A stretch of 64,000 nt of DNA from a virus. Taxonomy: Duplodnaviria; Caudoviricetes. Both the position numbers and the translations under genes were made by a program. Of the stretch, positions 4,363 through 41,542 are shown one piece after another. Within the stretch, counting starts at the first letter, position 1. Each line of letters starts with the position of its first letter. The notes under the pieces were generated by a model, which was not told the origin of the DNA, ran no database searches, and was given only the letters and a program-made list of their open reading frames with translations. Location: IMG/VR virus record IMGVR_UViG_3300022305_000561; one strand, written 5' to 3'.

Positions 4363-4460
4363 TATAAATAGTAATAGGTGTTACTCGCGGATAGCCGTCC
4401 CAGTAACTCTAATCATTCTTACATTAATCAAGGACTAATATGACCAGCATAGATATGTAT
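4363..4460 (+). repeat. conserved endonuclease-leader module, copy A
   Basis: TATAAATA; hairpin GTTACT-CGC-GGA-tagccg-TCC-C-AGTAAC (4380-4407); TCTAATCATTCT; AAGGA; ATGACCAGC. Confidence 0.9.
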
Positions 4461-5264
4461 ACTAAAGCTCACGAGGAATTTTTAGTATTAAACTTCAAAT
4501 CAAATACCACATTTACCACTACGAAGGGTTCATTTTCTGGAATAAGAACAAAACATTTCACCGAAAATTATCATAAAGTCGAACACATTTGTAATAAGTA
4601 CCACATACAACTAAATTTAGACAATATCAGAGAAGTTTGTTGGAGATTAACCAACAACGACTTTTCAAAAAAATTATGCTCTCATTGTTTAACTGATACT
4701 GTTAATTTTAGAGATGATCACAAAATATGGTACAGATTTTGTTCTACATCTTGTTCAACTCAACATAGAGATAATTCTACTAGGAAGGGATTTGCTACTA
4801 TTGATGGCAGAATTAAAGCATTGGAAACAATACAAGATCGTTATGGGGTACAACATCAATCTCATATACCAGAAGTATTTGAAAAAACTCAGAATTCTAG
4901 ATACAAGACTTATTCGTTATTATCCCCATCTAATAAAGAGTGTAGAGTACAAGGATACGAAAGATTTGTAGTTCCTAAATTATGGGAAACGTATGGTGAA
5001 ATGGATGTTATAATTAATAAAAAAGAAATTCCTAAGATTTATTATTTCTACAATAGACGAAGGAAATATTATCCAGATGCATTTGTACGATCAACAAATA
5101 CTATTATAGAAGTTAAATCTACATATACTATAAAATGCGAATTATTGATACCCAAGATGGAATCTTGTATAAGTCTTGGGTATAACATTAAAGTATATCT
5201 ATATGATAAGGGTAAAACTAGAATATTATCATTAAATGATGTTAAGAATATGATTCTTAATTAA
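4440..5264 (+). CDS. putative homing endonuclease, PD-(D/E)xK type with Zn-finger
   Basis: CSHC..FCSTSCS; C-terminal YYPDAF..IIEVKS; oriented opposite to flanking genes. Confidence 0.75.
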   Translation: MTSIDMYTKAHEEFLVLNFKSNTTFTTTKGSFSGIRTKHFTENYHKVEHICNKYHIQLNLDNIREVCWRLTNNDFSKKLCSHCLTDTVNFRDDHKIWYRFCSTSCSTQHRDNSTRKGFATIDGRIKALETIQDRYGVQHQSHIPEVFEKTQNSRYKTYSLLSPSNKECRVQGYERFVVPKLWETYGEMDVIINKKEIPKIYYFYNRRRKYYPDAFVRSTNTIIEVKSTYTIKCELLIPKMESCISLGYNIKVYLYDKGKTRILSLNDVKNMILN

Positions 5265-28778: not shown

Positions 28779-29252
28779 TTAAATTTCATCCGGTACATAA
28801 AACGCAGAATTATTTTCATGTTCCCAAATCTCTACTTTTGCTATCCAAATTCTATTATCGGTTTTTTCTAAAACTGTATTAATTAAAGAATCATATACCC
28901 ATTTACATGAACCCTCTATCCCAGGACCCCAATCATTGATAGAAGGTATAATAGTTAAATATAGTAATCCATCTAATTCTGCTTGTTTTAATTTATCCAA
29001 TTTAGGATCATTTTCAGACACTAATGTCTTATGATCCCAATTATCATCTAGCCATTGTTTTATAAATTTTGCATCCCCAAAATCATAGATCCATTGATGT
29101 TGATCTAATTCACCAGCAAAGGTAAATTGAATATACCGGCTGTAACCATGACATACTGAACATTTTACCGAATCTCTATTTGAATTTGTTGCAGCCATCC
29201 AGTTTCTATGTGATGTAGAAATTGGACCTATCTTTTTAGTCGAAAAAAACAT
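28779..29252 (-). CDS. queD: 6-carboxytetrahydropterin synthase
   Basis: SHR, CSVCHGYSR, DFG, WDH, VEIWEHENN. Confidence 0.85.
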   Translation of the reverse strand: MFFSTKKIGPISTSHRNWMAATNSNRDSVKCSVCHGYSRYIQFTFAGELDQHQWIYDFGDAKFIKQWLDDNWDHKTLVSENDPKLDKLKQAELDGLLYLTIIPSINDWGPGIEGSCKWVYDSLINTVLEKTDNRIWIAKVEIWEHENNSAFYVPDEI

Positions 29253-30219
29253 TTTGTATCTCCTGTATCATATTATTAAAAATTTGTGTAGTTTCGATAT
29301 CACTCATATCAGATCTAATTATAAACAATTTATAACCACTTGTCAATGCTAAATTATTTCTTCTTTGATCTATTAAATATTTCTCTGTATATGTTTTGTT
29401 TATGATCTGCATATTTGTGTTTGGGTGATTAACAAATTGCTCATATGATGGATGCCAGAAAGCACCATCATATTCAAATATTATTTTTAGATTTGAGTGA
29501 ACTATAGCAAAATCATAACTATGACAAATATTATCTACTATAAGTTTAAGTTCGTTCTTTCCATCCATTCCATATAAACAGTATTGAAGATACTGTTGTG
29601 GTATAAACGGTAAGATTCTTTTAATCCATTGTATGCATTCTTTTGATGACGAGCATGGTATAGTAGGAAATAAGGATCTTTTATACATTGCATATCTTTC
29701 TTCCCAATCTTCTGGATATTTTGTTTTAAAAACATCTATCGTTTTACAAGAACCATATCTTTCTATTTTTGTCGCTTTTGATTTGGCGTTTTTGATATTA
29801 TTTTGGTGTTGTAGTTCTTCTGTCGATAGTTTCATTCTATTAGTTTTTTTGGTATTTGCAGATTTTTTATATTTTTCATTTACTTTAATAGAACCCTCTT
29901 CTTCTCCATATTTTTCTTTGATTTGCTTAACTGTATTTTTCTTTGAAATAGTTTCAGTATAACGAATGAAGCCGTCTTCTTTACCATATAATCTTTCAAA
30001 ATTATCTAAGGTATGTGCAGATTTTCCTGCATGATTTAGAAATCTCTCTTCTCCATCATGAGGATATTTCCACATAAACCATTCTTTAGTCAACCGTTGA
30101 TAGGGTGCTGATTCGTATGTTTTTTTCTTTTTTAGTTCGCGAAGCCAAATTTGTTCACCCTTTATGTTACCGTGTTTTTCTGTGTAATGATCTTTTGATT
30201 TAACTGAATAGGTAACCAT
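29236..30219 (-). CDS. putative homing endonuclease (Vsr/DUF559-like)
   Basis: KYGEEEG repeats; C-terminal YDF..IFEYDGAFWH..D..R..GY.L.II. Confidence 0.75.
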   Translation of the reverse strand: MVTYSVKSKDHYTEKHGNIKGEQIWLRELKKKKTYESAPYQRLTKEWFMWKYPHDGEERFLNHAGKSAHTLDNFERLYGKEDGFIRYTETISKKNTVKQIKEKYGEEEGSIKVNEKYKKSANTKKTNRMKLSTEELQHQNNIKNAKSKATKIERYGSCKTIDVFKTKYPEDWEERYAMYKRSLFPTIPCSSSKECIQWIKRILPFIPQQYLQYCLYGMDGKNELKLIVDNICHSYDFAIVHSNLKIIFEYDGAFWHPSYEQFVNHPNTNMQIINKTYTEKYLIDQRRNNLALTSGYKLFIIRSDMSDIETTQIFNNMIQEIQNVFFD

Positions 30220-30268
30220 GTATATCTCCTAAAAATAGTATTTATACACGGTTACTCTTTAGGCAATA

Positions 30269-31048
30269 TTACCTATTCTTCTCATCAGACCATATGTAAG
30301 TATGGTTTCTTGTTGCTATTTTAAATCCTAGTTGCTGGTACTTCTCAACAATAGGGGCTATTTGTAACTGATCTTCTCTGGTTGTACCTAAAGGCATCAC
30401 CCAATATTCATAATCTATAATACTATTATACTTTAGTTTCTCTACAAAGTAAAGAAGTTCTGTTTCACACTCTTCAGAAGCATCTGCTACAAACTTCAGT
30501 TGACCAGAAAATGAATTTAATATGCTTGTGATATTATCAATATTAACTGCGTTCTTTTCTCCACTAACAGATTCTAACTTTGGACTGATAGAGAAGAATG
30601 GTCTAATGCTGTAAGGGTTATCGTCTAACCAATTAACGAACTCTTTTGTTAAAACTTGAGTTCCATTAGTTTCTATAGTGAAATTTACATATGAATTATC
30701 TAATGAGAACATAGTCACCACTTCTTGTATCATCTTATGATACTTTTTAAGAAGAGGTTCGCCTCCTGTAAAAACTAGATGAATATCATTACCAGTCAAT
30801 GGATGAACTAACGATCCAACTGGATTGTATTTATCTGTTATTAAAGATTTCAGTTTTGTATACACTTCCTCAGAGGTATATGTGTCGTGGGAATTTTTAT
30901 ACTCACCATTCCACGAATACTCTGTATCACAAGGAAATCCTGGACACTTTAGATTGCATCCAAATGTTCTTACCCAAAGACTGGGAGTGCCTGCATAATG
31001 ACCTTCACCCTGCATACTAAAAAATAGTTCTGATAATCTATATTGCAT
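30269..31048 (-). CDS. queE: 7-carboxy-7-deazaguanine synthase (radical SAM)
   Basis: ELFFSMQGEG, R.FGCNLKCPGFPCDT, TGGEP, IETNGT, SISPK. Confidence 0.92.
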   Translation of the reverse strand: MQYRLSELFFSMQGEGHYAGTPSLWVRTFGCNLKCPGFPCDTEYSWNGEYKNSHDTYTSEEVYTKLKSLITDKYNPVGSLVHPLTGNDIHLVFTGGEPLLKKYHKMIQEVVTMFSLDNSYVNFTIETNGTQVLTKEFVNWLDDNPYSIRPFFSISPKLESVSGEKNAVNIDNITSILNSFSGQLKFVADASEECETELLYFVEKLKYNSIIDYEYWVMPLGTTREDQLQIAPIVEKYQQLGFKIATRNHTYIWSDEKNR

Positions 31049-31098: not shown

Positions 31099-31548
31099 TT
31101 AGTCAACAAATGATTCCCAAGGATATATGATCCAAACTGGGTTTATTCGTTTATCTATTTTCCAATAGTAAAAATCTGAAGCAATCCTACTTGCTTTGTT
31201 ATAAGTAAGAGTTGCAACTCTTACTTCAGATGTTGATATGTGCCAGTTATGCAGTATCCAGTGTAGAGTCTCCCCCGTATCATTTATCTCATCAACAATA
31301 AGGATATTCTTACCATACTTAGTATGGATATCATCCATATCTAAAGTTTCTTGTATAGCACCATCACGAAGTTGAACAGTAACGATCTTACAAGGTACGT
31401 TAGATAGCTTACTAAACAAAGTAGCAGGTATTGAACCTCCATTAGCGATACCTATAATAACATCAGGAACCCAGTTTGTTTGTTGTATCTGTCCATATAT
31501 GTCTTTTATTGACGTTTCTATATCTTCCCAATCATAATACGTTTTCAA
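31099..31548 (-). CDS. type I purine phosphoribosyltransferase
   Basis: IGIANGG, ILIVDEINDTGET PRPP loop, WIIYPWE. Confidence 0.9.
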   Translation of the reverse strand: MKTYYDWEDIETSIKDIYGQIQQTNWVPDVIIGIANGGSIPATLFSKLSNVPCKIVTVQLRDGAIQETLDMDDIHTKYGKNILIVDEINDTGETLHWILHNWHISTSEVRVATLTYNKASRIASDFYYWKIDKRINPVWIIYPWESFVD

Positions 31549-32102
31549 AACTTAAACCCCGATGTGTCTTTCTTTTCTTTAGGTGTATAAGATGGAGTTG
31601 GTGCAGCTAATCCAGCTTGAGCTGAGTTCTCAACATCAAATATTCTCATCTTGTTTCTATCAATACCAACTACAAATTTCTTATAATAACTTGGATCGTT
31701 GTAACGATTCTTCAACTGCTTAATCATTATCTGCCCTAACTCCTCAAGTTCTTCTGTTGATATCAAAGCCAACATCAAATCACAAGTTTGAGGTAAACCT
31801 ATAGAGTTTTTAGTCAGAATATCGTTACAATAAAATAGATTATCGCCAGTAACTGTAATATCAATAGTTTGTAATATTCCAACGTCTTCTATAGAAATAA
31901 TCTCATCATTATAATCAATAAGTTTATCCGACAGTTCCGATTTTAACTGCCGCTCATCCTCTATTGTAAATAATAAATCTGTTAGCTCAAATAAAGTCAT
32001 ATCATTAGTTTGGTGGATGTATTCTTTTTCTTTTAGATATATCGCTTTTTTAAAACACTTTTCATATAAAGCTGGATTTTGTTCATAGTTTGGTTGATTC
32101 AT
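31545..32102 (-). CDS. 41: gp41 helicase fragment 3 (C-intein 2 plus C-extein)
   Basis: DEIISIEDVG..TIDITV..LFYCNDILTKN/SIGLPQTCD..KQLKNRY. Confidence 0.9.
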   Translation of the reverse strand: MNQPNYEQNPALYEKCFKKAIYLKEKEYIHQTNDMTLFELTDLLFTIEDERQLKSELSDKLIDYNDEIISIEDVGILQTIDITVTGDNLFYCNDILTKNSIGLPQTCDLMLALISTEELEELGQIMIKQLKNRYNDPSYYKKFVVGIDRNKMRIFDVENSAQAGLAAPTPSYTPKEKKDTSGFKF

Positions 32103-33159
32103 ATTGAGTCCATAATTTAGTAATAAGTTCTTTATATTCTTGCAATTTTGTTTTTTTATCGTCATCTGACCATATAATATTATACATCATACCTCTATCT
32201 TCTGCTATAGATTGCTTATATTCGTCCGATAGTAAAGAAGATTGGTAATCATTAAATGGATTTTTCCAATCTTCTATTTTTCTAGCATGCCATAAAATTC
32301 CATGATACTCTATTATAACACCTATCTTCTGAATAGTAAAATCATAAAAAAAACCCTGATTAGTTAATTTAGAATTATCCCTTATAAAAAATTCCTTAGA
32401 TCCAGTTACACCAAAATATATACTGTCTCTAGGGATACCTAATTTCCTACAGAACTTATACAATGGAATAAAAAACCTTATAGATTCCTTAGAGACATAA
32501 CCCCCAGTTCTTCTACTATCCATACCTGCAAGTAAAGATTCCGTTCTAGTTTTATTACAAGAAATATATTTTTTTAGTCCTTTTTCTTCACCATGTCTCA
32601 ATATAAACCCATCGAGTGATTGTGACATATTCGCTAAATATGGTATCCTAAGAATCTCAGCTTCTTCGAGGGTATACCCATTTTTAATCCAATAGTCTAT
32701 AGAAAATTTTAACTTCTCAGAGTGGTTATCATAACTCAATTTAGTTCGTTTTTTGGCATTTTTAGATTGTATATCGAATACTTTAGAAATAGCGTCGGGT
32801 TCCGACATACCTTTGGATATCCAATAGTCCTTTGAGAACCCATTGTATCTATTTTCCGAAACAGGCCTAACCTTTAGTTTATTTTCATATATTATTAACC
32901 CTTCTTTACCATACCTCAATAGTATTTTATCTTTATGTTTTGTTATACTTTTATATTTTTTATATAACATAATATGATCTATATCATAAATTTTATATAA
33001 ATCATATAATATCCTTGCTGTACCAAAAATACTACCTTTTGATGTTTCCTTGTCTATTATCGTAAGGAGATCCTTCATAAAAAGGTCTATCTTATCTTTA
33101 GGTAGATTATCAAGTATATTAGTTATTATGGTAGATTCTTGCCAAGTGGTTTTTCTCAT
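32083..33159 (-). CDS. free-standing endonuclease (Vsr/DUF559-like) between the halves of gp41 split intein 2
   Basis: YW..KG repeats; FYDF..IIEYHG..WH..D..K; late promoter at 33189-33196 (-). Confidence 0.8.
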   Translation of the reverse strand: MRKTTWQESTIITNILDNLPKDKIDLFMKDLLTIIDKETSKGSIFGTARILYDLYKIYDIDHIMLYKKYKSITKHKDKILLRYGKEGLIIYENKLKVRPVSENRYNGFSKDYWISKGMSEPDAISKVFDIQSKNAKKRTKLSYDNHSEKLKFSIDYWIKNGYTLEEAEILRIPYLANMSQSLDGFILRHGEEKGLKKYISCNKTRTESLLAGMDSRRTGGYVSKESIRFFIPLYKFCRKLGIPRDSIYFGVTGSKEFFIRDNSKLTNQGFFYDFTIQKIGVIIEYHGILWHARKIEDWKNPFNDYQSSLLSDEYKQSIAEDRGMMYNIIWSDDDKKTKLQEYKELITKLWTQYESTKL

Positions 33160-33225
33160 ACATGTATTCCTATGTTTGTGTGTATTACTATTTATAAGAA
33201 TTGGTATTTACCACAAACATAGTGA

Positions 33226-34398
33226 TTAATAAGATTTTAATCTATTACCGACGTTTAGACCCAGGTTAACAGATAATCTACCTAAATCTGAAGGGAATAT
33301 ATGATCTTTAGATACAGTGATACTCTTCCCACTCTTTAAGGTAATACAAACACATTCCTTAGGTTGCTCGTGGTGCACAAACATAGTAGTTTTAAATACA
33401 TCATTGGCTGTAATCCTATCTCCAGGGATTATATCGCCTATTCGCTTTATAGTGCCATCTATTAATTTAACCTTCTCATCCACCCAGATACATTCTGAAG
33501 TATTTGTTAAATCTAAATCTGAACTATTGATACCCTCACGATTAGACTGAGTTGCAGATACTAATGGTACATTATACTCAACTGCTAAACCTCTTAGTTC
33601 TTCTGCAATAGACTTGACATAGGTGTAACTATTAACACCAGCCCCAAACTTCATTCTCTGAGACGCACAGATGTTAAGATAATCAACAAAGATGATGTCT
33701 GGGACAAACTCTTTCTTAGATTTCAGTTCTTCAATCAAAGCTCTAAAGTGACCTGTATGAGCTGAAGCAGTTGGATATTCCTTGATGATTAGAGTACCAT
33801 GCGCTTTCTTTCTCAGCTTTTGAATACGACTTTCAAATATACTCTTATCGACAGTTTTGATTTCAGACATGCCTAGATTCAATAGATTAACATCTATTCT
33901 TTCTGCAATACGTTCTTCTGCCATTTCCATTGTAATATATAACACATTCTTTGTTTGGGCTAACGATGCTGCTGCCATATGACACATTACTAAAGATTTA
34001 CCAACACCAGTATTGTGTGATGAAACTCCATTAGTATAATATCTATGGTTATCGTGGTCTACTTGAATATCAACAATAGGTATCCTATTACCAGTCTTTA
34101 CTACATTTCCTTGAATAAGTATGTTCCCTTCTGTTAGATATAACTCATTAGGAATGTCGATTAAGTCTTTAGCATATTGCCAACCTTTATCAGTTTCAAA
34201 TAGATGGTTTTCATTTACCTTAACCTGTATTCCTGAATCCAAAGTAAGAATATATTCATCCCACTCTCCTTTATCAACAAATAAAGATACTGGAACATAA
34301 CCATCGGGTGAAGTCACTTCTATCTCATATCTAGAAGCTAATAACATATCAATATCTCCTATCGATATTTCTTGTTCTTCCCATTCGCTATTAATCAT
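33226..34398 (-). CDS. 41: gp41 helicase fragment 2 (C-intein 1, helicase core, N-intein 2)
   Basis: ..YYTNGVSSHN/TGVGKS; YITMEMAEE; IFVDYL; SATQ.NR; TSE/CIWVD..SKDHIF. Confidence 0.93.
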   Translation of the reverse strand: MINSEWEEQEISIGDIDMLLASRYEIEVTSPDGYVPVSLFVDKGEWDEYILTLDSGIQVKVNENHLFETDKGWQYAKDLIDIPNELYLTEGNILIQGNVVKTGNRIPIVDIQVDHDNHRYYTNGVSSHNTGVGKSLVMCHMAAASLAQTKNVLYITMEMAEERIAERIDVNLLNLGMSEIKTVDKSIFESRIQKLRKKAHGTLIIKEYPTASAHTGHFRALIEELKSKKEFVPDIIFVDYLNICASQRMKFGAGVNSYTYVKSIAEELRGLAVEYNVPLVSATQSNREGINSSDLDLTNTSECIWVDEKVKLIDGTIKRIGDIIPGDRITANDVFKTTMFVHHEQPKECVCITLKSGKSITVSKDHIFPSDLGRLSVNLGLNVGNRLKSY

Positions 34399-34473
34399 AA
34401 AATCTCCAATAATAAAGTTATATTATACTAAACCAAATGCTTCTAGGTATTTTCCAGAATTAAAACAGTATTT

Positions 34474-35112
34474 CTAATCAATAACCCTCTTTCTCATCCT
34501 GATTCTAATCTTAGTATCAGGATGAACGCATCCAGCCAAAAATATGTTAAGGCTTTTCCTCGACAGACCGCCCGAAGTTATGCGGTTGAGTATATCAATA
34601 TCAAACGGAATCTTTTCCTCAACTCTACGATAAAAGTCAAACCTAGAGTCTGCATCATTAAAGTAATCATGTCCAACATTTGTATCAAAGCAAATACTTA
34701 ATGCCTCAGATAACAGATTAGGAATTGCCTCTTGGGTATGTACCTTATCCTTACCTTCAATGATTTGAATTGAATCAAGGATTGCAATATAAACTGCTCG
34801 TTGCTTACAGAAACCTTCAGTGTGTTCTAATAACCAACCTTGATCAATGTCATTATGTGATAAGGATTCAACTAAGGTTTGAGCCTGAGTTAGCTCAGTT
34901 GCATTGATATCCCTACGATTAGAAATCTCAATTGATAAGATTTCAGGTGTTGCTAGTTTGGTAAAGGTTTCAAAGAACTTAAGGATTTCCTCTGATACAA
35001 TAGATTCAATTCTATCTGCAAAGTATTCTTTCTTTAGAAACGGAATGACCTTCCTTGAATACTCTTCATCGTGGATAAGGTTAGAAAGAATTGTAGTTTC
35101 AATTCTGGACAT
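34474..35112 (-). CDS. 41: gp41 helicase fragment 1 with 18-aa N-intein
   Basis: gp41 N-terminus (IETTILSNL..VGHDYF..KIPF) ending LNIFLAG/CVHPDTKIRIRMRKRVID*. Confidence 0.9.
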   Translation of the reverse strand: MSRIETTILSNLIHDEEYSRKVIPFLKKEYFADRIESIVSEEILKFFETFTKLATPEILSIEISNRRDINATELTQAQTLVESLSHNDIDQGWLLEHTEGFCKQRAVYIAILDSIQIIEGKDKVHTQEAIPNLLSEALSICFDTNVGHDYFNDADSRFDFYRRVEEKIPFDIDILNRITSGGLSRKSLNIFLAGCVHPDTKIRIRMRKRVID

Positions 35113-35528: not shown

Positions 35529-36146
35529 CTATTCTACTTTATCAAGTTCTTCTTCAATATCTTCATCAACAACTTTATCTAGTTCGGCAGTTATTGATTC
35601 GTCAGTTAATAGTTGACCAGTCGCTAACGTATATCTTTCCCTAACCCACGATAAGAATGTTTTATCTGATAAGATAGGCAACCAGAAGTCTTTGGTATCT
35701 GTATCTTTGATACGATATTTCTTTTCTTGTATTTCGCCAGATAATACATCAACCTTAGAATACCATCCATTTGAGGGTTTTATGACATGACCAGATTCCA
35801 AAGCCATTTCGAGCAATCCAGACCATGTGCTAATACCACCTTCAAACTTCACAGTGATTGGAATTTTAGACTTTTCTCTAACGTGTCTAGACTTCTCAAC
35901 ATTAATGATGAAACTATATCCTGATACTTCTGTTCCTTCTTTTTCTTGTTGTCTGCCTATAATGTAAATATTATCGGCGCTTAGGTAGACCCCAGTTCCA
36001 CCACTCACGATAGGTTTACTGTAGAGCTCTTGGGTATTATGAGAAATGATACCATTACTTAAAACATAATCGTGGGTTGGTGTTTCTATATCATAAACAT
36101 ATTCTTTTCGTGAATTAAATTTAATAGACTTAATCATCATTTTCAT
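35529..36146 (-). CDS. uvsX: UvsX recombinase C-fragment with 37-aa C-intein
   Basis: IKSI..VYDIET..YVLSNGIISHN/TQELY..VSGGTG..KSR. Confidence 0.92.
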   Translation of the reverse strand: MKMMIKSIKFNSRKEYVYDIETPTHDYVLSNGIISHNTQELYSKPIVSGGTGVYLSADNIYIIGRQQEKEGTEVSGYSFIINVEKSRHVREKSKIPITVKFEGGISTWSGLLEMALESGHVIKPSNGWYSKVDVLSGEIQEKKYRIKDTDTKDFWLPILSDKTFLSWVRERYTLATGQLLTDESITAELDKVVDEDIEEELDKVE

Positions 36147-36901
36147 TTTTTCTTACTCCTACAATTATCAAAATGCCAGCGACCGCTAGCAACAATCATC
36201 TTACAATGGGGGCATTCTCTTTTTTCATGTTTCCAAGTTAAACCAAATGTTGGATTATTTTCACCTTTCCTAGAACCTATCTTAGAAGTTCTTTCGGCAT
36301 AATCCATAGATTTTACCGAATTTATCCTACGAGCTTCTTGTTCTGTTGTAAAGTTATTTCTAACGGTTTTCATGGAAACTGATTTATGATACCAATCAGT
36401 TTCCTTTAAAATATCAAAACAATCATTCATCTCAGCAAAAAATTTTAAACTGTTTCTAATATTAGATAAAGTGAGACCAATCCCCTTTCTTATATCTGGA
36501 GAAGATATCTTCTCTTTTGTGTACATTTCCCAAATACGAGTAGTTTGTGCGATATAATCATCAAATCCATATTTTCTAGCCCATCTATCTTTAATGGATA
36601 TTCCAATATTTTTAGCAAAGGCTCTTCTTATCCAACCGTAACTCTTATTTGATTGCCTCCCAAACCTATTTGAACACATCATCGTACAAGCATAAATCAA
36701 TTTAGAAATATCTGGGTTGATTTTAACCAATAATAAATGTGCCAAATAGTGTTCTTCTGGAGTCAACCTAACTAAATTATCGAGGGTATCTGCTCCGCCC
36801 ATACAAGTTGGTAATATATGATGTACTTCAACATACCCATCTATATGTGATCGTAAAATACCCCTATTGATTAAACGGTTATAATGTTTTAAATAATTCA
36901 T
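36143..36901 (-). CDS. HNH homing endonuclease between the UvsX split-intein halves
   Basis: EVHHILP..GG..NLVRLTPEEHYLAHLLL; C-terminal CPHC..RWHFDNC. Confidence 0.9.
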   Translation of the reverse strand: MNYLKHYNRLINRGILRSHIDGYVEVHHILPTCMGGADTLDNLVRLTPEEHYLAHLLLVKINPDISKLIYACTMMCSNRFGRQSNKSYGWIRRAFAKNIGISIKDRWARKYGFDDYIAQTTRIWEMYTKEKISSPDIRKGIGLTLSNIRNSLKFFAEMNDCFDILKETDWYHKSVSMKTVRNNFTTEQEARRINSVKSMDYAERTSKIGSRKGENNPTFGLTWKHEKRECPHCKMIVASGRWHFDNCRSKKK

Positions 36902-36950
36902 ATTCTTACCTATGTTATGTATATATGAACTATTTATATATTTTAAACTT

Positions 36951-37805
36951 TCAGATAATATCTAAATACATACCCTCATGTAAATCCTCCACTAACACCC
37001 ATTCACCATTCACCTTAAATTTATGTCCCGATGTAAAAGAAAGCGTTGACCCATCTTCCATTTCAATATCAGTAACAAATGCCTCATCATACTTAAATTT
37101 ATTTAAAACTGGCTCAAATCCATTGGTGGTTAATACATTACACCCAACCTCGATATCTTTTAATGATAATGGTCCAGTTTCTGTCGTCACCATCATATCT
37201 TTAGTACCGCACATATAGATATGGTTAACAGCTACCATAGGAATGTCAAACTTCACTAGGTATGGAGTTATCATCCTAAAGATAGACTTCATTTGCTTTG
37301 CTCTTGACATATCTGTAACAGATTTACCATCCTTTGCATCATCAATTTCTTTCTTACTTGACATATTACCCAAGGAATCTACTAAGAATATGATTTTATC
37401 GCCTTTCGTTATGTTCTCTAAATGATTAATAGCATCTAACTTGAATTCTTCCATATTCATAATTGGAGTATGTAGAATTCTCGACTTGTCCATATTCAAT
37501 GAATCAAAATATGATTCAGGTGTTCCAAACTCACAATCATAGAATACCATAATAGATTCTGGATACTTGTCCATATAGGCTTTTGCCAGGATCAAACAGA
37601 AGAAACTCTTAAAGTGTTTTGAGTTACCACAAAACAAAGTAAGCCCAGGAGTTAATCCACCATCTAATCTTCCCGAAAGAGCTACATTCAATGCTGGGAT
37701 TGGTGTTGGGATCATATCTTTTTTCGTAAAGAATTTAGAAACTGCCAATGTGGAAGTTTCTTTGATGGTACTATTTTTCTTCATTCTTGCTAATAACTCA
37801 CTCAT
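36951..37805 (-). CDS. uvsX: UvsX recombinase N-fragment with 86-aa N-intein
   Basis: LNVALSG..G.SKHFKS, YDCEFG, DSLGN, NHIYM/CGTKD..TSGHKF. Confidence 0.92.
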   Translation of the reverse strand: MSELLARMKKNSTIKETSTLAVSKFFTKKDMIPTPIPALNVALSGRLDGGLTPGLTLFCGNSKHFKSFFCLILAKAYMDKYPESIMVFYDCEFGTPESYFDSLNMDKSRILHTPIMNMEEFKLDAINHLENITKGDKIIFLVDSLGNMSSKKEIDDAKDGKSVTDMSRAKQMKSIFRMITPYLVKFDIPMVAVNHIYMCGTKDMMVTTETGPLSLKDIEVGCNVLTTNGFEPVLNKFKYDEAFVTDIEMEDGSTLSFTSGHKFKVNGEWVLVEDLHEGMYLDII

Positions 37806-37869
37806 ATTATCACCTTTATTATTGTTATGATACAACTATTATAACCCCAAATTGGATAAAAGTAAAGAC

Positions 37870-38175: not shown

Positions 38176-38815
38176 TCCCCAATTACCCCAACCTATCTCT
38201 GCATCAAACAACATTCCATCACCAAGAAAAAATATTTCGGCAAGACCACAAGATCAGATCCAATAAAGTATAAAGGATCAGGAGTTTACTGGGGTCTTCA
38301 TATCAACAAGCACGGTAGGCAGTTCGTCGAAACAATCTGGCTATCCGATCTATACTACGATACCTCTATAGTAGAACAAGCACTCCATTTCTCACACGAA
38401 AACAGCATCGTCGAATCAGACGATTGGGCAAATATAATCCCAGAAAATGGATTAGATGGAGCTCCTGCAGGTAATAAAAAAAGGACCACATTCTGATGAA
38501 ACAAAATCTAAAATATCTGCTGCTATGATAGGTAAGAAAAGAGGTCCCCAATCCGATGAGCGTAAATCTAAACAATCTATTGCTATAACAGGCAAAAAGG
38601 CTTCTGATGAAACAAAAGCTAAACAATCTGCTGCTAAGGTAGGTAAGAAGAAAGGTCCACATTCAGACGACCATAAAGAAAAATTATCTGCTGCTATGAT
38701 AGGTAAGAAGAAAGGTCCTCCTTCTGACGAAACTAAGGCAAAAAGAGCAGTAACTAGAGCTGCTAATAAAGCAGCTCGTCTATTGTTAAAAGAATTAATC
38801 ATCAACGATTTGTAA
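38155..38815 (+). pseudogene. GIY-YIG-like endonuclease with NUMOD3-like repeats, frameshifted at an A7 run (38476-38482)
   Basis: TYLCIKQH..KYFGKT..YKGSG.YW..ENGLDG, then KKGPHSDETK repeats in the +1 frame. Confidence 0.75.
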
Positions 38816-38816
38816 A

Positions 38817-39908
38817 CTAAAAGAAGTCATCAAGTGTCGCCTTCTCCTCTAATACCCATCCCATTGGATCAATAATATTCCCTAGAGGATCCAAGAATAC
38901 CTTTTCAAACTGATAATCATAATCCACATATTTGTGAAGCCCAAACTCAACTGGCAACTCAGATGGAAATGCTATCACATTCTCTTTGATTGTGTTGGGT
39001 TTTTTGAGATATATGAACTTGATCTTATCCCCAGACTTGATAGGTGGATATTTGCTTGTCAACCCCAATTCTTTAAGAAGATGATTATACAACAATGCTC
39101 CTCTAACATGAATCGGACAACCTTTAGCATAGATCGATACGTTACTACTATATTCAGCAACACCATTCACACCTCTTGGAAATGCTATATCCTCAATAGG
39201 AATACTCGTAAACTCTTTTCTAGCCAATTCAATGAACTTGATAAGGTCACCATTAGTTCCGTCAAGGATAACGCCTATAGTTGACTTCAGTTTATCTCTA
39301 ATTGCCTGTGGTGTTGAAGACTTTACGATTTCCAAACCCATAATCTTAAGTTTAGGTTGGTCATATTGAACGCCCTCAGAGTTATGAACTCTAAGAATAT
39401 ACTTCTTCTTTCTACACCAAACACCCTTATCAGCCAGAACTTCTCGCTTCATCTGCATCTTGTTTTGAAATGCATTCATATAAGATGCTAGATCAGCATA
39501 AGACTTTTCAATGATTGGAGTTATAACTTGACTGCAAAACTTATCCATGAACTTAATCTTTTCATCAGTTGTTTTACCAACTTGAGTTTGTTCAACTAAA
39601 GTTTCTAATGCTAGGTAAACTGAGTCAGTATCAATCGCAATGATATAATCCTTATCAACAGTCTTCATTGATGTGTTCATATACAAATTAAGAGTATTGG
39701 CGATCCACTTGATCGAAAGTTGACCAGACACAGTAACACTCTCTGCCATTCTCAAATCATAGTATCTAAAGTATGCATTACCCAATGCTCCATATGCTGA
39801 GTTCAAAGCAATCTTCAAAGCCATCTGAAGATTAGTCAGCCGTGAGATTTCTTTCCCTGTACTAACTTTCAACTTTAATAAATCTGAATCACTCATTTCT
39901 TCAAACAT
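38817..39908 (-). CDS. 43: B-family DNA polymerase C-fragment (gp43B)
   Basis: [30 protein letters not shown]-terminal clamp-binding LDDFF. Confidence 0.95.
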
Positions 39909-39965
39909 AAAATCTCCAATAATAAAGTTATATTATACTATAAATCATAATAAAAGTAAATAGTG

Positions 39966-40078: not shown

Positions 40079-41542
40079 TTACAACCCTCTTCTACTTAAC
40101 TCAGCCTTTATATTTTCATATTTTTGTTCTTCATCTAACATTTGTCTTTTGAATCCAACGCGATTGTTATACATTGTTTCCATTAAACTAGGCAAAAATC
40201 CTTGCTTATCATTCTTATAACACCATCCATTAGCTGAGACAGATAATCCTGTCTCAGGAATAGGTTCTTTCTTAAGCAATCCCTCAATAGTAAGGTTTAA
40301 TCTCGTATCAGCAATCATCTCAGGACTGATGTTATATTGACGAATTAGTGAAGGATATAAACTTGCCAAATCGAACGATGCTACCCATTTATGCATACCC
40401 TTTATAGGATCTTTGACGTATGCACCCTCAAACGCTTCACCTTTAGAATGATGTTCATTGTTAGGAATAACAACTTTCTTCTTCAACAAATCGTTATAGA
40501 TGATAGCATCCCATAGCTTCACAGGACTAAACGCATCATTATAGTTAATCTTTGCTGTATAAGCCATCGTTAGATGTAACTCAATCAACCTTAACTTATC
40601 TTCTAACTTATCAACTATGTCAACATCTTTTATGTTGTAGTCGACGAACAACTCAAAGTCTTTTGTATAGAAGTCCTTGAATGATGCAAACTGACTATGA
40701 TCAACTTTCTTTTCGTCTAACTCAACAAAGCCAATATGGTCAAGTTTATAAGATTCTTGAGTAGTGAATGTGTATTTCTTATAAAGAACGATGTAATCTA
40801 ATGAAGATATACCCACCAGATCAAACATTAGTTCTTCAGTACCACGAATATTAATTTTCTTTTCGTTAACAATATTCCAAGGTGATAACTTCTTATAATC
40901 ATCACCAAGAACCTTTTTGATACGATTGACTAAGTAAGGAATATCAAACAAGTCAGTATTCCAACCTGTGATAACATCAGGCATATTACATTGCCAATGA
41001 GTCAAGAACTTCCTCAATAAATCCTGTTCATTCTTACACAAGACATAGTTGTTTGCAAACTTACCTGTATATGGTCTTGAACCAAAGGTTTTATACTCTT
41101 TAGACTTGTTATCTTGGATAGTGATTAGCAGAATCTCTTCAGCTGCATACTTAGGTTCTGGAAAGGCATCGGCTTCAGTTGCAGTTTCAATATCGATTGA
41201 AACTATCTTCATCAAATCTGAATCGAAGATTATATCTTCAGGATGAGTCTCAGAGATATACTGATAAGCATAGTTAGTTTGACCAAAGATATTGAACGAC
41301 CCAACTCCCTCATAAGTTTTGATGAATTCCTTACAATCATTAATGTTTCCTGGTTTTATCTCATATGCTGGAATATCATTTAATGTAGACCATTCAGTGG
41401 GTACTGATGCAGTTTTAGTATTGGTTGTGTACAAGGTAGGATAAAAGTCTACCTTCTGTTTTTGCGGAAGTCCGTCCCGAATAGAACGAACTAAAAGTTG
41501 ACTGCCATATTGGAGACAGGATGTGTAGAATGATGTTGACAT
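40079..41542 (-). CDS. 43: B-family DNA polymerase N-fragment (gp43A: exonuclease plus motif A)
   Basis: DIET, GWN..FDIPY, YNIKDV, SFDLASLYPS; ends in the fingers domain. Confidence 0.95.
   Translation of the reverse strand: MSTSFYTSCLQYGSQLLVRSIRDGLPQKQKVDFYPTLYTTNTKTASVPTEWSTLNDIPAYEIKPGNINDCKEFIKTYEGVGSFNIFGQTNYAYQYISETHPEDIIFDSDLMKIVSIDIETATEADAFPEPKYAAEEILLITIQDNKSKEYKTFGSRPYTGKFANNYVLCKNEQDLLRKFLTHWQCNMPDVITGWNTDLFDIPYLVNRIKKVLGDDYKKLSPWNIVNEKKINIRGTEELMFDLVGISSLDYIVLYKKYTFTTQESYKLDHIGFVELDEKKVDHSQFASFKDFYTKDFELFVDYNIKDVDIVDKLEDKLRLIELHLTMAYTAKINYNDAFSPVKLWDAIIYNDLLKKKVVIPNNEHHSKGEAFEGAYVKDPIKGMHKWVASFDLASLYPSLIRQYNISPEMIADTRLNLTIEGLLKKEPIPETGLSVSANGWCYKNDKQGFLPSLMETMYNNRVGFKRQMLDEEQKYENIKAELSRRGL

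Follow-up and report, generated by a model that had tools for sequence, protein, structure and literature searches.

Two different split inteins divide the gp41 helicase of an uncultured T4-like phage into three separately encoded pieces

The stretch of DNA analysed here (the window) comprises 64,000 nucleotides (nt) of the viral record IMGVR_UViG_3300022305_000561 (Duplodnaviria; Caudoviricetes), from an uncultured T4-like phage. In this window the replicative helicase gp41 is encoded by three open reading frames (ORFs) on the minus strand that carry two different split inteins. The layout is real and very probably functional. We consider it highly likely that obligate three-way protein trans-splicing joins the three products into a helicase of ~453 amino acids (aa), and the three-piece gp41 is the sole gp41-type replicative helicase visible in the window. 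N- and C-terminal intein fragments are called IntN and IntC and are numbered 1 and 2 after the split to which they belong. In the direction of reading, the locus contains the following elements.

34474-35112, minus strand: ORF of piece 1, 212 aa; ends in LAG/C and 17 further residues
34531..35112, minus strand: gp41 piece 1 extein, residues 1-194; N-terminal domain and linker, up to the first two Walker A residues (AG)
34477..34530, minus strand: IntN1, 18 aa, with Cys1; basic; stop codon at 34474-34476
34399..34473, minus strand: gap 1, 75 nt; two in-frame stops and a restart module, without an endonuclease gene
33226-34398, minus strand: ORF of piece 2, 390 aa
34012..34398, minus strand: IntC1, 129 aa; acidic start, block B His, ends in SHN, +1 Thr
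33493..34011, minus strand: gp41 piece 2 extein core, 173 aa; remaining Walker A residues (TGVGKS) through motif H4 and its loop
33229..33492, minus strand: IntN2, 88 aa, with Cys1 and S-x-x-H block B; stop codon at 33226-33228
33160..33225, minus strand: gap 2, non-coding, 66 nt; T4-type late promoter TATAAATA at 33189-33196
32083..33159, minus strand: predicted free-standing homing-endonuclease gene, 358 aa; helical N-terminal region and catalytic domain (residues 220-358)
31806..32102, minus strand: IntC2, ~99 aa from the preferred start at 32102; ~65-aa acidic extension and 33-aa canonical C-fragment; ends in TKN, +1 Ser
31545-32165, minus strand: ORF that contains piece 3, with TKN/S at residue 120/121
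31545..31805, minus strand: gp41 piece 3 extein, 86 aa and stop; C-terminal end of the helicase

An earlier note on this DNA, made from its letters alone, had read fragment 1 as ending in an N-intein inside Walker A (LAG/C), fragment 2 as opening with C-intein 1 (HN/TGVGKS) and closing with an 88-aa N-intein 2 after TSE/C at 33492-33229, and fragment 3 as carrying C-intein 2 up to TKN/S. The three ORFs bear out each of these assignments, the boundaries of the second N-intein to the nucleotide. The note had also proposed to splice the pieces in silico and to align the product to T4 gp41, and the result is colinear. In searches of PDB sequences, the piece 1 extein matches residues 4-198 of T4 gp41 (8due; phmmer, E 4e-26), the piece 2 core residues 199-373 (E 1.5e-39) and the piece 3 extein residues 374-434 (E 2e-10). 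Pfam DnaB_C is found in the piece 2 core (2.8e-14), and piece 3 matches PHROG 19, a DnaB-like helicase family (1.6e-17). The two junctions map to G198/V199 and E373/S374 of T4 gp41, where the exteins tile without gap or overlap, so that nothing is lost or doubled in the chain of 194 + 173 + 86 = 453 aa. Joining AG to TGVGKS completes the Walker A motif [AG]xxxxGK[ST], with SLNIFLAGTGVGK as the predicted peptide across junction 1 in the spliced chain, and its GK[ST] is invariant in all 38 distinct middle pieces on which our conservation counts are based.

The first split lies at AG/TGVGKS, between the second and third Walker A residues, and neither precursor therefore has a P-loop. With an IntN of only 18 aa, intein 1 is atypically split. 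Its Cys1 directly follows LAG in piece 1 and is kept in all loci with IntN1, while all 38 middle pieces keep the His65, His128, Asn129 and Thr130 of piece 2. A search of PDB sequences relates IntC1 to VidaL (6vgv, E 5e-9). A contiguous allele of intein 1 (P0001, from the IMG/VR locus L003; related loci are given by L numbers) aligns with residues 3-144 of 6vgv, the whole chain, with an E-value of 2e-13. This alignment places the break of the window where VidaL has its own, after beta-strand 2, the split position known as S1 (PMC13014065). The VidaL type is characterized by this split position and by an IntN of ~15-20 aa, and both are found here. By its alignments, intein 1 is an additional member of this type.

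Since piece 2 follows piece 1 in frame after 75 nt, the read-through chain could be folded as one AlphaFold2 (AF2) model, for which the two stops were set to Gly and the alignment included contiguous alleles. The overall predicted local distance difference test score (pLDDT) is 83.5. IntN1 is docked (pLDDT 97/80) and IntC1 is above 92, while the artificial linker is disordered. The top PDB match of the intein 1 model is VidaL, with a template modelling (TM) score of 0.88 normalised to VidaL and a root mean square deviation (rmsd) of 1.8 Å, followed by other inteins. In the model, IntN1 and IntC1 together thus adopt the HINT fold of a class-1 intein. Intein 1 shares with VidaL (6vgv/6vgw) the split point after beta-strand 2, a very short basic IntN, an IntC of ~125-130 aa, Cys1 and the SH(N) end, and the flanks of the VidaL crystal construct (G before, SG after) are compatible with the same P-loop site. 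The differences are a sequence identity of 21% in the structural alignment, an IntN of 16 aa in VidaL versus 18 aa here, Ser instead of Thr at +1, and the presence of a second split intein in the host protein of intein 1. The native host of VidaL is presumably a 'T4-like helicase'. VidaL itself is described as ultra-fast (PMC13014065, citing Neugebauer 2017 and Burton 2020).

Intein 2 is a canonical split intein of the gp41-1-like kind. IntN2 matches the gp41-1 intein (6qaz, E 2.8e-7 in PDB sequences) and Pfam Hint (1.2e-5), and the 33-aa part of IntC2 matches residues 96-128 of 6qaz (E 2.6e-3). Cys303, Ser363 and His366 of piece 2, all within IntN2, are invariant in 38/38 middle pieces; in piece 3, N120 and S121 do not vary among seven loci. 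All seven loci of this site class have Lys at the penultimate position (TKN), and the usual block G His is absent. A penultimate His (HN) is frequent in class-1 inteins but not obligatory. Piece 3 most likely begins at its second ATG, 32102, because gene callers chose that start in the 88% relative L083 and in an Atlas record; read from there, it shares 20 nt with the end of the endonuclease ORF. The ~65-aa acidic extension of IntC2 is kept in the seven loci, three of which are without any endonuclease gene, and is missing from the gp41-1-type IntC of L090, which ends in THN. An Atlas search for the extension returned weak leads only, all below 0.9. The insertion site is TSE/S in 34/38 middle pieces and lies 12 residues upstream, at TRSG[FY]/, in 4/38. 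L090, with its GIY-YIG gene and THN end, shows that those four represent a genuine gp41-1-type intein.

The fractured genes of gp41-1 to gp41-9 (Dassa et al. 2009, PMC2677866; 6qaz) have the same order as split 2, with the N-part and IntN followed by a short non-coding stretch, a same-strand endonuclease, and IntC with the C-part. They further share with the window a Vsr-like endonuclease family and a T4-like phage host, and the 88-aa IntN2 is homologous to that of gp41-1. Each of these genes has one split (PMC2677866), as the earlier note had stated of gp41 genes from metagenomes, versus two in the window. The gp41-1-like inteins sit 12 residues upstream of TSE/S, and their IntC of 36-37 aa has a penultimate His, whereas IntC2 has ~99 aa with its extension and a penultimate Lys. 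In L090, the true gp41-1 type (GIY-YIG gene, THN) is likewise combined with a VidaL-type split. The full fractured-gene pattern of PMC2677866 is present at split 2, where a 66-nt gap and a 358-aa ORF are followed by IntC2 and the C-part overlapping the ORF end. At split 1 the pattern is incomplete, the endonuclease being absent in the window and on the opposite strand in relatives.

The layout is not confined to the window. We searched 5.8 billion proteins with the middle piece and counted the architectures among the best 120 matches as follows.

IntC1-core-IntN2 middle pieces, 55-88% identity: 39, of which 37 are not from the window
IntC1-core-C-terminus (intein 1 only): 67
Whole gp41 with contiguous intein 1: about 7
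Contiguous intein 1 and IntN2: 4
IntN2 only: 2

Complete three-piece loci, six to seven of them independent, were recovered at the DNA level in L001/L081/L082, L083, L084, L085, L086/L087 and L090, from JGI, ENA (megahit, SPAdes) and Logan assemblies of different samples, and the layout is common in metagenomes. The deposited phage genomes have no DNA-level match to the locus. A tblastn search of them found no place covering at least 80% of the middle piece (best ~50%, core only), so that no phage record in that collection has the layout. An exact look-up of the middle-piece protein of the window gave no record either. Within the middle pieces, the block B His, SHN/T and GK[ST] as well as Cys1 and S-x-x-H of IntN2 are invariant in 38/38.

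Both predicted splice junctions are supported by natural uninterrupted alleles. L091, the nearest relative of the window, has 97% identity to it as far as the junction and continues without interruption from TSE-S into the piece 3 sequence of the window; L007 has an uninterrupted AG-TG junction. In L003, intein 1 is contiguous. The existence of natural intein-free alleles indicates that the inteins are mobile, and a 119-tip tree of the extein core requires at least 13 changes between presence and absence of split 2. In L083, the N-terminal extein (4382-4963, compared with 34531-35112 of the window) is only 66% identical, and the rest of the locus 78-96%. This pattern suggests that a recombination event had its breakpoint at intein 1 or close by.

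The conservation of the catalytic residues bears on the question whether the inteins splice at all. The intein halves could act as non-covalent dimerisation modules, giving a three-chain helicase without peptide-bond formation. Split-intein halves do bind tightly before splicing, and intein 2 lacks the penultimate His (TKN). We nevertheless regard this explanation as improbable, as all residues that the chemistry requires (Cys1, block B His, terminal Asn, +1 Thr/Ser) show no variation across 38/38 divergent sequences, a HINT domain of ~147 aa left in Walker A would block ATP binding, and the relatives VidaL and gp41-1 splice rapidly (PMC13014065). Very improbable is a decaying gp41 pseudogene in a phage that uses another helicase. 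The view is limited to 64 kb of the contig, which would leave a place for such a gene; however, extein motifs and intein catalytic residues are kept without frameshifts across 55-88% identity, many lineages retain the layout, and no second DnaB_C gene was found in the flanks of ~6 kb per side in related contigs of 57-232 kb.

Gap 1 holds, besides its two stops, a restart module in which a -10-like TATAAT is followed by GGAG six bases 5' of the piece 2 ATG. Two stops together with an own GGAG-ATG indicate a true split. A lone stray stop in an otherwise contiguous intein 1 was also considered and is ruled out by the two stops, by the ribosome-binding site (RBS) and ATG of the gap and by the HNH gene in relatives. 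In L001, L002, L005, L083, L085, L086 and L091, an opposite-strand ORF of ~0.65-0.9 kb occupies the position of gap 1. Wherever checked, this ORF is of the HNH type: an HNH motif is present in L001, L002 and L005, the ORFs of L085 and L086 are homologous to the HNH gene in the uvsX gap described below, and that of L083 has a PHROG homing-endonuclease match. In the window, a 38-nt module of -10-like box, RBS and start codon spans 34393-34430 and is repeated with 37/38 identical positions at 39903-39940 (minus strand), before gp43B. Its 32-nt core (30/32 identical) is found in L083 5' of piece 2, adjoining the antisense HNH gene. The shared restart module and the HNH gene of the relatives point to gap 1 as the scar of a lost HNH cassette, which fits the gene-breaking model of Dassa et al. 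(PMC2677866). The 38-nt module resembles a border left over from an endonuclease cassette, which would restart expression of the gene half downstream.

The same gap would have to be crossed by the ribosome if split 1 were bridged by read-through or by bypassing as in T4 gene 60, so that intein 1 would splice in cis and only split 2 in trans. The two pieces share one frame across the 75 nt, a GAT codon precedes the stop and occurs again two codons before the ATG, and natural contiguous alleles are viable. Against this stand the two in-frame stops, the GGAG-ATG restart module that is also found before gp43B, and the antisense HNH gene of 0.8-0.9 kb in the gap of relatives, which must consequently trans-splice; taken together, bridging is extremely improbable. 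That assembly or sequencing errors created the stops and gaps in an ordinary intein-containing gene, the objection which the earlier note had named as fatal to its proposal, is hardly credible, as no supporting point was found and independent JGI, ENA (megahit, SPAdes) and Logan contigs of different samples agree in the layout, including whole endonuclease genes in the gaps.

A free-standing endonuclease between fragments 2 and 3 had been proposed as well, and the predicted structure of the gap-2 ORF supports it with a Vsr-like fold. The ORF has no Pfam or PDB sequence match and a single weak PHROG match (phrog_22677, unknown function, E 7.6e-4). Its identity comes only from a deep homologue set and from structure. 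The family is large (1,109 representatives), and an AF2 model from a 71-sequence alignment reaches a pLDDT of 94.5. The C-terminal domain of this model superposes on I-Bth0305I (3r3p; Z 9.6, 95/97 residues, 2.5 Å) and on Vsr (1cw0; Z 9.4). D273, E284 and H291 are invariant in the 71 homologues, 11 of which have Pfam DUF559. The model identifies the gap-2 product as a predicted Vsr-like homing endonuclease of the I-Bth0305I type, with a catalytic domain of the PD-(D/E)XK type. This endonuclease family was first noted in fractured genes (PMC2677866). The likeness to I-Bth0305I consists in the fold of the catalytic domain and the conserved acidic and His residues. The window protein differs in having no direct Pfam match and in a long helical N-terminal region (1-215) without an identified relative.

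The late promoter TATAAATA lies ~30 nt upstream of each endonuclease ATG on the minus strand, at 33189-33196, 36931-36938 and 30239-30246, and the motif occurs 23 times in the window versus ~11 expected. A second Vsr-like free-standing endonuclease, a paralogue of the gap-2 ORF that also belongs to PHROG 22677, is encoded at 29236-30219 (minus strand). It adjoins a queE-like radical-SAM gene (30269-31048).

Two neighbouring replication genes are split as well, one of them by a third split intein.

35529..37835, minus strand: fractured uvsX with a third split intein; UvsX-N and IntN at 36951-37835, HNH gene at 36143-36901, IntC and UvsX-C at 35529-36146

The UvsX intein is canonical, with an 86-aa IntN, a 37-aa IntC and Thr at +1 around an HNH homing-endonuclease gene, which matches PHROG 655 (E 2e-52) and has a late promoter upstream. 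uvsX is intact in L001, L084, L086 and L091, split in L083, and split in L085 with an I-TevI-like gene. The DNA polymerase gp43 consists of two ORFs at 40079-41542 and 38817-39908 (minus strand; 487 and 363 aa). There are no intein residues at its break, which points to a split without splicing. The polymerase is contiguous in L091 (830 aa) and apparently intein-fractured in L086/L087. Between uvsX and gp43B, a plus-strand ORF (38456-38815) contains three tandem copies of ~109 nt at 38491-38770, and its Lys/Ser-rich repeat peptide may bind DNA as the repeat element of a further endonuclease cassette.

The analysis establishes the anatomy of the locus, its homologies, the modelled fold, the conservation of catalytic residues, the existence of empty-site and contiguous alleles and the recurrence of the layout. 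Splicing itself, the sequence in which the two junctions form and the orthogonality of the inteins are inferred. In the proposed mechanism, the basic 18-aa IntN1 would dock on the acidic start of IntC1 and complete the HINT fold. Splicing of AG to TGVGKS would then form the Walker A loop, so that no precursor would be an ATPase. IntN2 would pair with IntC2, and class-1 splicing would join ...TSE to S..., just after motif H4; the split of intein 2 would correspond to the canonical endonuclease-insertion position. Two class-1 splicing reactions would in this way yield the mature helicase.

Such a system must keep its fragments apart, also from the UvsX pair. The charges are +4 for IntN and -7 for IntC (first 30 residues) in intein 1, and +3 for IntN and -5 for IntC (-11 with the extension) in intein 2; in the UvsX intein, IntN carries -10 and IntC has a basic start. 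Cross-identities between the intein fragments are 11-31%. Inteins 1 and 2, which have the same polarity, would be separated by split topology: IntN1 comprises beta1-beta2 only, which IntC2 could not use for want of the necessary strands, so that a cross-reaction of IntN1 with IntC2 would be avoided. The UvsX pair would be kept apart from both by its reversed charge polarity. A requirement for orthogonality is a reasonable assumption, and split topology and charge polarity are its likely basis as judged from sequence. As to the origin of the locus, homing-endonuclease cassettes would have broken contiguous mini-inteins, intein 1 by an antisense HNH gene and intein 2 by the late-promoter-driven Vsr-like gene. 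In this genome the HNH gene would since have been deleted and its promoter/RBS restart module left behind.

Several points weigh against three-way trans-splicing. The window covers 64 kb of a contig of ~140 kb, so that a second intact helicase gene is possible elsewhere. Lys in place of the penultimate His of intein 2 could slow Asn cyclisation, although it is kept throughout this site class. The ribosome-binding site of piece 3 is weak, and its reading frame shares 20 nt with the endonuclease ORF, which makes its expression level uncertain. A further point is the ~65-aa extension that IntC2 carries.

The DnaB of M. smegmatis (PMC6195587) is likewise a DnaB-family replicative helicase with two different inteins, of which one interrupts the P-loop and the other lies at motif H4 or beside it, and the P-loop intein makes its ATPase splicing-dependent (PMC6195587). 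Its inteins are contiguous and splice in cis, with DnaBi1 belonging to class 3, whereas both inteins of the window are split and three polypeptides must meet. The P-loop site also differs, lying before the GK-S serine in M. smegmatis versus between AG and TG here. Engineered tandem trans-splicing (PMC12707363) resembles the locus in using three segments and two orthogonal split inteins, and in engineered three-segment ligation the atypically split VidaL or Cat has been paired with the canonical Cfa (PMC11185735). Those are laboratory designs, whereas the arrangement of the window is natural and recurs in many phage lineages. Our literature search, which left some key subscription literature outside, found no natural gene with two split inteins and no natural three-polypeptide trans-splicing, engineered systems only.

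As all parts come from known families, the novelty lies in their combination. We suggest, tentatively, that gp41 of this phage is the first described natural protein that is obligatorily built from three polypeptides by two orthogonal split inteins, one VidaL-type (S1) and one canonical (S0). This suggestion includes that the three-piece state has come and gone repeatedly in T4-like phages, with at least 13 changes among 119 alleles and at least two different second inteins, that the conserved ~65-aa IntC extension is undescribed, and that the helicase could be gated by the meeting and splicing of its pieces. As the first junction creates the P-loop, such gating of helicase activity could act post-translationally.

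The locus would be the natural counterpart of the tandem trans-splicing that engineers build, with phages using it on an essential replication enzyme. It may also serve as a source of tools, as it offers naturally co-evolved, presumably orthogonal pairs, an 18-aa IntN that suits peptide synthesis and has dozens of natural variants, and, in uvsX, a third pair. The alleles document the proposed route for the origin of split inteins, since intein-free, contiguous, split with endonuclease and split with endonuclease lost are all represented.

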